From the UHGV virus genome UHGV-0203747: a DNA stretch of 18,524 bases. One strand, given 5' to 3'. This DNA comes from a virus. The translations under genes and the position numbers were made by a program. Numbering within the stretch: the stretch's first letter is position 1; the number at the start of each line of letters is the position of its first letter. Below are positions 1 through 1,316 of this stretch, piece after piece. The notes under the pieces are model-generated. The model was not told the DNA's origin, did no database searches, and saw only the letters and a list, made by a program, of their open reading frames with translations.

Positions 1-1311
1 AAATGATACAGTTATTATATTTTTCAAGAAAATAAATAAAAAGAATTCAAGACTCTCCCTTGCCATAAAAAATGAAAAAGGCATTGTCATAAGTGCAGCT
101 ATTTGTAATACACCAACTCTCCTCATCAATATGATTTTATCAAGAAATCTAAAAACAACGCCTGAGATAACATATGAGCACCAGAAAAAATACTTTCCGA
201 AAATAACAAGCGATGACCCAAGCAAAGTTGATGCCATATTCAATCCATTGCTAAGACCAAGAGCACTCACGGTAAAGTAATATGAGCTATTCATTGTGAC
301 AATTGGTTTGTCAGACCATATGAATCTTGGGATAAACCCTGAAAATTGAGTAAAGAAATAATAAATACCACCAACATTGCGATCATTGCTAAAGTATTTA
401 ACAGCTATACTCTGATAATTGATAGGAGATACGCTATCAGCTAAATATCTGACTATAATGCCAAAAAGAGAGCCAGACGCTGAAATATCAACATCTGAGT
501 ATCTCACTATAGCCATTACACCAATTAGAATTAAGCACACAGAGCCTATGCATATTAATTTCAACATGCCAATTAAGCCTCTAGAGTGGCAAATAAGAGC
601 AACAATAAACATTGCCGAAAACATTACATTTCTTGAGCCACCAATAAGTACGTAATATGCCATCCCAAATAACAATGACATTATAATTGATTTAACGAAC
701 ACATACTTATCGTCAGATGTAATTGCATACACTATAACAGCAGAAACAAAAGATGACATTATCATTATAATGACACCACTACCAGCATTCCCGCCAAGCT
801 TTAAAGCATAATCATCAGAATTAAAAGATATGCCGTTTATGGCATAAAAAGCCATCATCCCAACAAAACTTAAAAACAACGTTGTTCTTACAAATAATTT
901 TGGGCTACCAATAAAATATTTATCAGAAAAAGTTATTTTATTTCTTCCTGCCGCTGTATGAGAGAATACATAAAACAAAACTATACCAATAAACGACAAC
1001 GTAGACACATCATTTATATATTGATACGGCATATATTCTGCAGAACTAACTTTTGCCCCAACTCTAAACGGAAGCGATATATACCCAAAAAAATGAGTAA
1101 AAACGAGGAATAACATCCCAACAGATTTGAATGACACGCCATGTTTTTTGAATGACACGGCACTTAGATATATTAATATTATGGCATACAACGCAGGTAG
1201 CACATAAGTAAAAAATGATTCATAAATATTCATAATATTGTATGTAAAAATGACTATTTTTACCCGATCTTTAAAGAAAGTACAGGATGATAGCGCGTTT
1301 CTACGCGCCAT
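1..1311 (-). CDS. Polytopic integral membrane protein, N-terminal 437 codons only (3' end lies beyond the window edge); candidate O-antigen-processing/modifying protein (Wzy-, Wzx- or GtrC-like), function unconfirmed
   Basis: Hand translation of the minus strand from ATG at 1311..1309 (a second in-frame ATG is at 1314..1312) to position 1 gives 437 codons with no stop, in DNA of roughly 20-30% G+C where random frames would be full of stops. Product begins MARRNALSSCTFFKDRVKIVIFTYNIM... and has at least 9-10 long hydrophobic stretches (e.g. VLPALYAIILIYLSAVSF, GSGVIIMIMSSFVSAVIVYAIT, MFSAMFIVALICHSRGLIGMLKLICIGSVCLILIGVMAIV). SD AAGGTGA (complement of 1317-1323) sits 5 nt before the 1311 ATG. 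Missing from the ORF track presumably because the stop is outside the window. Family assignment is inference from size, topology, AT-richness and position. Confidence 0.7.
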   Translation of the reverse strand, partial: MARRNALSSCTFFKDRVKIVIFTYNIMNIYESFFTYVLPALYAIILIYLSAVSFKKHGVSFKSVGMLFLVFTHFFGYISLPFRVGAKVSSAEYMPYQYINDVSTLSFIGIVLFYVFSHTAAGRNKITFSDKYFIGSPKLFVRTTLFLSFVGMMAFYAINGISFNSDDYALKLGGNAGSGVIIMIMSSFVSAVIVYAITSDDKYVFVKSIIMSLLFGMAYYVLIGGSRNVMFSAMFIVALICHSRGLIGMLKLICIGSVCLILIGVMAIVRYSDVDISASGSLFGIIVRYLADSVSPINYQSIAVKYFSNDRNVGGIYYFFTQFSGFIPRFIWSDKPIVTMNSSYYFTVSALGLSNGLNMASTLLGSSLVIFGKYFFWCSYVISGVVFRFLDKIILMRRVGVLQIAALMTMPFSFFMARESLEFFLFIFLKNIITVSF

Positions 1312-1316
1312 CATAG

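Follow-up and report, generated by a model that had tools for sequence, protein, structure and literature searches.

A WzyE-family polymerase gene linked to the tailspike receptor-binding domain of a P22/Sf6-like Escherichia coli prophage, a candidate for lysogenic conversion

Introduction

Phages of Pseudomonas, Salmonella and Acinetobacter are known to encode Wzy polymerases (PMC4815439, PMC9241936, PMC13228068). The Pseudomonas aeruginosa phage D3 carries Iap and Wzy-beta, a second O-unit polymerase that relinks the repeat units of the host, with superinfection resistance (PMC4815439, PMC12004945); Wzy-beta contains a Wzy_C domain and works by a mechanism unlike that of the host Wzy-alpha (PMC4815439). 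The Salmonella phage epsilon15 combines a beta-polymerase with an inhibitor of the alpha-polymerase, according to work cited in PMC4815439. In Acinetobacter baumannii, phage-encoded Wzy proteins are described for K127 and related capsules, whose structures have been solved by nuclear magnetic resonance (PMC9241936, PMC13228068). For Escherichia coli, a 2019 review of O antigens merely hypothesizes a second wzy with an inhibitor, for O118/O151 (PMC7685785); no characterized E. coli example was found in the literature searched, and a genomics paper on sequence type (ST) 410 is silent on phage wzy (PMC10786849). Here we describe a wzy gene at positions 1–1314 (minus strand) of UHGV virus genome UHGV-0203747, an 18,524-nucleotide stretch of DNA that is referred to, in its full length, as the window. 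The gene lies directly behind the tailspike gene of a P22/Sf6-like E. coli prophage, and its product may change the linkage between the repeat units of a host polysaccharide recognized by the adjacent tailspike.

Like D3, the element is a temperate phage carrying a polymerase distinct from the host Wzy, with a gene for a small membrane protein alongside. Use of the same repeat unit by the phage and host polymerases, a D3-type trait, is suggested here by co-occurrence with a six-gene host locus in 24 of 27 carriers and by homologues in syntenic loci. Differences from D3 are that the phage and host enzymes are both WzyE-family homologues with no Wzy_C match, that the small neighbor is a 105-residue ORFan without shown similarity to Iap, that the polymer is a K40-like one of E. 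coli, and that conversion is here a prediction from sequence. The conversion genes of epsilon15 lie just downstream of its tailspike gene, and there, too, a podovirus conversion polymerase changes the O-antigen linkage recognized by the phage's own tailspike; that polymerase belongs to the Wzy_C family, the phage lineage and host glycan are different, and conversion is biochemically proven, whereas here it is predicted. The absence of Wzy_C in the present locus touches a feature of the D3 and epsilon15 examples rather than of the mechanism.

The A. baumannii systems resemble this one in that a prophage wzy outside the K locus sets capsule structure and confounds genotype-based typing; they differ in that the phage Wzy builds the polymer, whereas the present host keeps an intact wzy of its own and the phage gene is tied to a tailspike domain. 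Sf6 oac and P22 gtrABC offer the parallels of a P22-like phage, argW integration, an Sf6-like head-binding domain and, presumably, the same slot in the genome, but in those systems a finished chain is acetylated or glucosylated, whereas here the joining of units would change. Finally, WzyE, the polymerase of enterobacterial common antigen (ECA), and the Wzy of the six-gene host locus share with the phage protein PF06899, invariant Arg and Asp residues and GG-R, RY and SP motifs; the phage protein differs from them in being only 24% and 31% identical, respectively, and in being prophage-borne rather than part of the wec or K locus.

Results and Discussion

The gene encodes a predicted WzyE-family polymerase

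The minus-strand frame from position 1314 to position 1 holds 438 sense codons without a stop, in line with the uninterrupted open reading frame (ORF) of at least 437 codons described in an earlier note on this DNA. The remaining five frames of positions 1–1314 contain 15–44 stops each, and the chance of an open frame this long at the base composition of that strand is ~2e-14. The ORF is missing from the program-made ORF list, as the earlier note had remarked, solely because it runs past the window edge. The note was also right that the gene is incomplete in the window, the left edge cutting its 3' end, but the missing part is merely the last 15 codons and the stop: the full-length gene has 453 codons in 98%-identical copies (WP_060621170.1, 453 aa). 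RefSeq copies carry the PGAP name 'WzyE family oligosaccharide polymerase'.

Residues 37–400 of the product align with profile positions 10–373 of 447 in Pfam PF06899 (WzyE; 67.6 bits against a gathering cut-off of 25 bits, E 1.4e-18), which is the sole Pfam match, and no acyltransferase-3, Gtr, Wzx or Wzy_C (PF04932) profile matches at E <= 1 in Pfam. By family membership, the product is a predicted WzyE-family repeat-unit polymerase. Three types had been proposed for it; Wzy stands, while Wzx and GtrC drop out for want of any profile match. The lack of an acyltransferase-3 motif, also claimed then, agrees with the Pfam result, and the profile search returned no unrelated transporter family. 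Hydropathy gives ~11 hydrophobic segments, consistent with the previous count of at least 9–10, and a large loop at ~residues 272–365 that bears the motifs DSxSP and QF..PRF.W.DKPIV.MNSSYYFT. An alignment of the phage protein with the Wzy of the E. coli six-gene locus and with Salmonella ECA WzyE shows R228, R271, D392, R419, G225-G226 and S296-P297 unchanged in all three, along with the GG-R, RY and SP motifs.

The AlphaFold model of the protein is all-helical, with a predicted local distance difference test (pLDDT) score of 81 and a predicted template modeling (pTM) score of 0.81. WaaL, SEDS and Wzy proteins have a distant common fold. The best matches among solved membrane-protein structures are enzymes that act on lipid-linked glycans, WaaL and RodA/FtsW, and the top Foldseek match in the PDB is WaaL, at weak scores (E 0.36, TM-score 0.33–0.36); because of the common fold, weak matches to WaaL and RodA are expected of a Wzy. 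Sequence searches of the PDB with the single sequence and with a nine-sequence profile gave no match at E <= 1, and a structure search of BFVD gave nothing significant. WzyE itself is without a deposited atomic model, and an AlphaFold model has been used for it (PMC10030265). Word-indexed searches found 8–11 relatives, and out of 1.84 billion cluster representatives an exhaustive hidden Markov model (HMM) search retrieved 94 at E <= 1e-3; this Wzy clade is truly rare.

ECA polymerase WzyE proper was considered as an identity for the product and rejected, as the NCBIfam equivalog model NF002820 requires 510 bits and the protein reaches 72.9, the gene belongs to a prophage at argW rather than to the wec cluster, and the protein is 24% identical to Salmonella WzyE.

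The gene is inherited with the receptor-binding domain of the tailspike

In a survey of 5426 complete E. coli genomes, wzy was found in 27 genomes and 30 places, always chromosomal and at 97–99% identity. The receptor-binding part of the tailspike (window 1317–3000) is present in the identical 27 genomes and 30 places. The pairing of tailspike and wzy put forward in the earlier note is thus supported by 27/27 co-occurrence, and it recurs on another phage backbone. In the metagenomic contigs L009–L011, a 59%-identical Wzy directly follows the tailspike; residues 116–721 of the L009 tailspike are 70% identical to residues 120–726 of the window tailspike, and the N-terminal anchor of the L009–L011 tailspikes is 75% identical to the tail fiber of the Enterobacter siphophage CobraSix. 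Since the same pair stands behind a CobraSix-type anchor, the receptor-binding domain and wzy have moved together from one phage backbone to another. In CobraSix, a 56%-identical wzy directly follows the tail-fiber gene.

The window tailspike consists of two parts, both on the minus strand. The N-terminal head-binding domain (3159–3497) is of the P22/Sf6 type and serves as the backbone-specific anchor; it matches PF09008 (Head_binding) at 222 bits over residues 1–113, and its best PDB match is the Sf6 gene 14 protein (7sg7_A, E 3e-64). The receptor-binding domain (1320–3140, residues 120–726) is identified as the partner of wzy by its co-occurrence with that gene and its homology to L009, and no solved homologue of it was found. 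It shares 68–69% identity with G7C gp66 and with the tailspike proteins of phages MK-13 (Shigella) and fGh-Ecl02 (Enterobacter).

Within the tailspike gene, G+C content falls to 37–40% at window 2500–3250, around the junction of the head-binding and receptor-binding domains. This dip suggests that the receptor-binding part and the virion genes differ in origin.

A host locus is the likely source of the repeat unit

In strain 90-1, the galF-gnd interval contains a WzyE-family wzy, wzx, a gene for a 496-residue protein with no family match, a GT4 glycosyltransferase gene, and pssD and pssE (Alg14/Alg13-like). This six-gene locus is present in 67 of the 5426 genomes, mostly ST410-like 'O8' strains, and 24 of the 27 wzy carriers hold it (Fisher p = 4e-45, uncorrected for clonality). 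Strains with a variant locus, from chicken, wild boar, hospital and STEC (E. coli that makes Shiga toxin) sources, also bear the module.

The three carriers without the locus are real exceptions, since distant blastn recovers the same 67 genomes, and each has a likely cause. First, N273 (L012 7970–17775) has an ST410 background in which the galF-gnd/O8/his region has been replaced by a sialic-acid (neuBC) O131-type cluster; its wzzB has an internal stop, and the prophage with intact wzy is retained, which leaves the polymerase orphaned from its presumed substrate. An O-antigen switch reported for ST410 B5/H24RxC matches N273 (PMC10786849). Second, in E92 and E94 (L007 ~4700–4720; window ~1222–1236) a 10-bp tandem repeat, TTATGAATAT, is one copy short, and this deletion frameshifts the 5' end of wzy, removing or frameshifting the Met28 start described below.

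The chromosomal relatives of the phage protein provide further evidence. The nearest ones lie inside GT4-Alg14-Alg13 loci in all three contexts examined. In Vibrio cholerae (L014 8001–13923) and Photobacterium damselae (L015 5890–14035), the order is wza-wzb-wzc, (wecA-like), wzy, wzx, a protein of about 498 residues with no family match, GT4, Alg14, Alg13 and ugd; the third context, a metagenome contig, has the same locus and lacks just the 498-residue gene. All six proteins of the set are homologous between the Vibrio and E. coli loci, at 32–51% identity. Compared over its full length, the phage Wzy is 39% identical to the Wzy of the Vibrio locus; its match to the Wzy of the E. coli locus is confined to the C-terminal two thirds and stands at 31% identity. 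These relationships indicate that this Wzy clade is dedicated to the repeat unit of this gene set, and that the phage and resident E. coli Wzy proteins are of separate types. Vibrionaceae and E. coli thus have one repeat-unit gene set in common, combined with three distinct types of Wzy.

ST410-like hosts carry the six-gene locus together with an O8 mannan cluster of the ATP-binding cassette (ABC) transporter type between gnd and his. To judge from these loci, the likely substrate of the phage Wzy is the product of the six-gene locus and not the ABC-transporter O8 mannan. The architecture of the locus resembles that of the O8:K40 his region, and 'K40-like' is used here as a lead only. Amor and Whitfield in 1997 and Amor et al. 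in 1999 reportedly described a six-ORF, Wzy-dependent K40 cluster for a GlcA(L-Ser)-GlcNAc-GlcNAc unit, in which a novel enzyme is said to add the serine and to be needed for polymerization. The two K40 papers appear by title among the works cited in PMC7685785 and PMC13463779.

In the ST410-like strain WCHEC115106 (L005 14039–15454), manC of the O8 mannan cluster has an internal stop. Because manC is interrupted, the polymer of the six-gene locus may be the dominant surface glycan there despite the in-silico 'O8' call.

A model for polymerase exchange in the lysogen

It is plausible that the phage Wzy swaps the inter-unit linkage of host repeat units, as a form of lysogenic conversion like that of D3 and epsilon15; we place the probability of this reading at roughly 0.6. 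The strict linkage of wzy to one receptor-binding domain is the reason for reading the pair as receptor recognition plus receptor change. The receptor-binding domain, a hairpin, wzy, a convergent 105-residue gene and a shared terminator would form a low-G+C, int-proximal accessory module. The Wzy would reside in the inner membrane and join undecaprenyl-diphosphate-linked oligosaccharide repeat units at the periplasmic face, drawing on the unit made by the host galF-gnd wzy-wzx-496aa-GT4-Alg14-Alg13 locus, which by its architecture may resemble the K40-type serine-substituted GlcA-GlcNAc-GlcNAc antigen of O8:K40 strains. In a lysogen, the phage enzyme would compete with or replace the 31%-identical resident Wzy and join the units by another linkage, giving a polymer that would no longer be bound or cleaved by the adjacent tailspike. 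The outcome would be serotype conversion and the exclusion of related phages, as with Wzy-beta of Pseudomonas phage D3 and Salmonella phage epsilon15. In this model, we infer what the enzyme acts on, that the linkage changes, that the gene is expressed in the lysogen, that related phages are excluded and any part played by the 105-residue protein.

Several observations weigh against the model. The receptor-binding domain of CobraSix is unrelated, so coupling of wzy to this tailspike domain is not universal; to judge from these relatives, the position of wzy is conserved, and its pairing with the receptor-binding domain is conserved only among closer relatives. No receptor described for the G7C gp66, MK-13 or fGh-Ecl02 tailspikes was found in the literature searched. 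One clone (ST410-like) accounts for most of the association with the six-gene locus. No inhibitor of the resident polymerase is supported by homology, and the adjoining 105-residue protein is an ORFan. Expression is a further concern: promoter scans for lysogen expression gave no more sites than shuffled sequences did, and between the hairpin and Met28 there is just a -10-like TACAAT without a -35. In addition, the long ORF begins 2 nt past the tailspike stop with a good Shine-Dalgarno sequence, so late, lytic-phase co-expression with the tailspike is possible.

A wider version of the model is also conceivable, although we hold it only tentatively and consider it doubtful as a whole. Here the receptor-binding domain, hairpin, wzy and 105-residue gene would form a portable cassette, of a recognize-then-rewrite kind, exchanged between P22/Sf6-like podophages and CobraSix-like siphophages; it would relink a K40-type antigen in a carbapenem-resistant pandemic ST410-type lineage, and the ORFan would be a new kind of inhibitor of a resident WzyE-family polymerase. 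This would make it the first polymerase-swap seroconversion of E. coli, with a serotype hidden from the galF-gnd locus.

If the conversion model is true, this locus provides a concrete E. coli case of the hypothesized second wzy, and about a third of the complete genomes with the galF-gnd locus (24/67), many of them ST410-like clinical isolates, would show a polysaccharide beyond in-silico serotyping, with bearing on phage therapy, on vaccine and antibody targeting and on epidemiological typing. The two homologous polymerases, which share one repeat-unit gene set, form a natural pair for the study of linkage specificity in WzyE, a family that is poorly understood. The module also represents a receptor-binding domain and a putative receptor-modifying enzyme that are co-inherited across phage morphotypes.

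Alternative explanations

The phage Wzy may instead be a back-up polymerase that forms the linkage already made by the resident Wzy, giving more polymer, lysogen fitness or capsule thickness, or rescuing a damaged wzy, with no conversion. The two enzymes do belong to the same family, there is no recognizable inhibitor gene, and in A. baumannii the polymerase that assembles the K127 capsule is a phage-encoded Wzy (PMC9241936). However, the resident six-gene locus is 100% identical in carriers and non-carriers and its own WzyE-family Wzy is intact, hence there is no defect to rescue. The two polymerases are not only 31% identical but unalignable in the N-terminal third, and Wzy proteins are generally linkage-specific. 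The strict tie to one receptor-binding domain is also better explained by receptor change, and we regard the back-up role as unlikely.

It is similarly improbable that the gene is hitch-hiking cargo, captured with the tailspike domain from a capsule locus, kept by linkage, and unexpressed or nonfunctional in E. coli lysogens. Database copies of wzy show 0 nonsynonymous against 4–8 synonymous differences, and the ratio of nonsynonymous to synonymous rates (dN/dS) is 0.10–0.18 between database copies and the window copy and 0–0.18 among copies overall; selection on wzy is purifying. Of the 27 genomes, 25 keep the ORF intact, among them some with a disrupted tailspike, and the broken copies occur only in hosts without the presumed substrate locus. 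The protein also persists in two other phage contexts at 56–59% amino acid identity, with its invariant motifs.

Action on another glycan, either ECA or the conventional O antigen of the host, is less probable again. The best Pfam and NCBIfam matches are indeed to WzyE, the ECA polymerase, tblastn aligns the protein to ECA WzyE at 25% identity, and three carriers are without the six-gene locus. Against this, the score of 72.9 bits falls far below the ECA equivalog cut-off of 510, and identity to ECA WzyE (24%) is lower than to the Wzy of the Vibrio locus (39%) or of the E. coli locus (31%). All chromosomal homologues examined lie in the GT4-Alg14-Alg13 capsule locus and none in a wec cluster, and most of the hosts make their O8 antigen through an ABC-transporter pathway, for which no Wzy is required (PMC7685785).

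A non-polymerase function, as a GtrC-type glucosyltransferase, Wzx flippase, WaaL-like ligase or acyltransferase, is very improbable: these families are all polytopic and often AT-rich and the top PDB match is WaaL, but that match is weak and is of the sort expected of a Wzy, the only Pfam and NCBIfam match is to WzyE/ECA polymerase, there are no gtrA/gtrB neighbors, and the homologous chromosomal loci each have a separate gene in the wzx position adjoining wzy.

Composition, start codon and hairpin

As a candidate moron, the wzy gene has a G+C content of 33% against 49%, a hairpin upstream and a terminator hairpin downstream; no convincing promoter was found. More precisely, G+C is 33.0% for positions 1–1314 (29% at third codon positions) and 49.0% for positions 1320–18524, with the step up at ~1250–1350. 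The earlier note gave 17–33% for sampled 60-nt lines of the gene, which falls inside the real range of 17–42%; the structural line at 60% with which these were compared is atypical, as the structural genes average 50% and reach >=58% in just 8% of 60-nt lines, and the contrast was overstated.

The frame opens with two ATG codons, at 1314–1312 and 1311–1309, after the tailspike TGA at 1319–1317, and the ATG at 1311 had been proposed as the start. That ATG is present, but the true start is probably Met28 (window 1233), 81 nt further in. This start is favored because residues 1–27 are unconserved in the homologue alignment and poorly modeled (pLDDT ~54 for residues 1–30, against 75–95 beyond), because the Met28 column (ATG 1233–1231) is common to proteins P0001, P0002 and P0003, which include the 59%- and 56%-identical homologues, because the CobraSix homologue, gp26, begins at the equivalent of Met28 with in-frame stops upstream, and because L009 and CobraSix have equivalent hairpins. 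The conserved polymerase core would thus occupy positions 1–1233 on the minus strand. No Shine-Dalgarno sequence was found ahead of ATG 1233; the good one belonging to the long ORF (AAGGTG) serves ATGATG at 1314–1309.

A 12-bp hairpin covers this ATGATG (1287–1314, minus strand) directly 3' of the tailspike stop and resembles a terminator. It folds at -22 kcal/mol (z = -3.8; 0/200 shuffles fold as well), and its sequence is invariant in 5 copies. GC-rich hairpins likewise follow the stop of the receptor-binding protein in L009 (2173–2191) and in CobraSix (L002 5809–5824). Most likely, it acts as a terminator or attenuator, closing the late operon and marking the module boundary. More broadly, it could terminate the late operon, gate translation or form a boundary at which modules recombine and are exchanged; the last of these roles has been proposed, in a bioRxiv study of phages like G7C, for a stem-loop beside gene 66.

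Prophage context and the neighboring gene

Beyond wzy and the tailspike, the window is taken up by a full P22-like set of virion genes. In strain 90-1, the genes run in the order yfdC, tRNA-Arg (argW), intS, the 105-residue gene, wzy, the tailspike gene and Arc, followed by P22-like DNA-transfer, needle, portal and coat genes. By these criteria of gene content and order, the host element is a P22/Sf6-like E. coli prophage at argW. The P22-like context and the slot downstream of the tailspike that the earlier note proposed agree with the virion module, the Sf6-type head-binding domain and argW/intS. Of the neighbors it expected to the left, the integrase and attachment region are there, as intS at tRNA-Arg argW, but no gtrA/gtrB-like genes adjoin wzy. 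This int-proximal slot, between tailspike and int, is the one occupied by oac in Sf6. No phage record has near-identical DNA, and the element is known only as a prophage.

The window Wzy has 7 amino acid differences from three translated database copies (L001, L006 and L008), which are themselves identical in protein sequence, and the window tailspike is 99.9% identical to that of strain 90-1 despite these differences. The window lineage is unrepresented among the complete genomes.

Kapi1, a P22-like phage at argW in which genes not known modify the O antigen, was considered as a related system and set aside as a different one, since megablast and tblastn found no similar gene in it.

Just left of window position 1 lies the gene for the 105-residue ORFan (L001 11604–11921, plus strand; L006 3104–3421), which is convergent with wzy and encodes a single-pass membrane protein with an N-terminal transmembrane helix. 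A GC-rich terminator hairpin between the two genes (L001 11928–11948) is shared by both. The gene is conserved and intact in 4/4 copies examined, one of them at a different chromosomal site, and is annotated as 'hypothetical' in other genomes. Its product has no Pfam or PHROGs match, only near-identical copies of it are found within a set of 5.8 billion proteins, and by BLASTP it shows no similarity to a small hydrophobic ORF that follows wzy in L009. Comparison of its transmembrane segment with TM1 and TM2 of WzzB gave p ~0.03 and 0.12 against shuffles, taken as not significant. By analogy of position with D3 Iap, this membrane protein is a candidate partner of the polymerase; a role as an inhibitor is speculative.

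Strains STEC306–308 (NZ_CP091016/18/20; L008) have two copies each of the tailspike-wzy module, the second of which adjoins bioA-ybhB with only an 84-nt integrase remnant. To judge from this arrangement, the module has reached a second chromosomal site.

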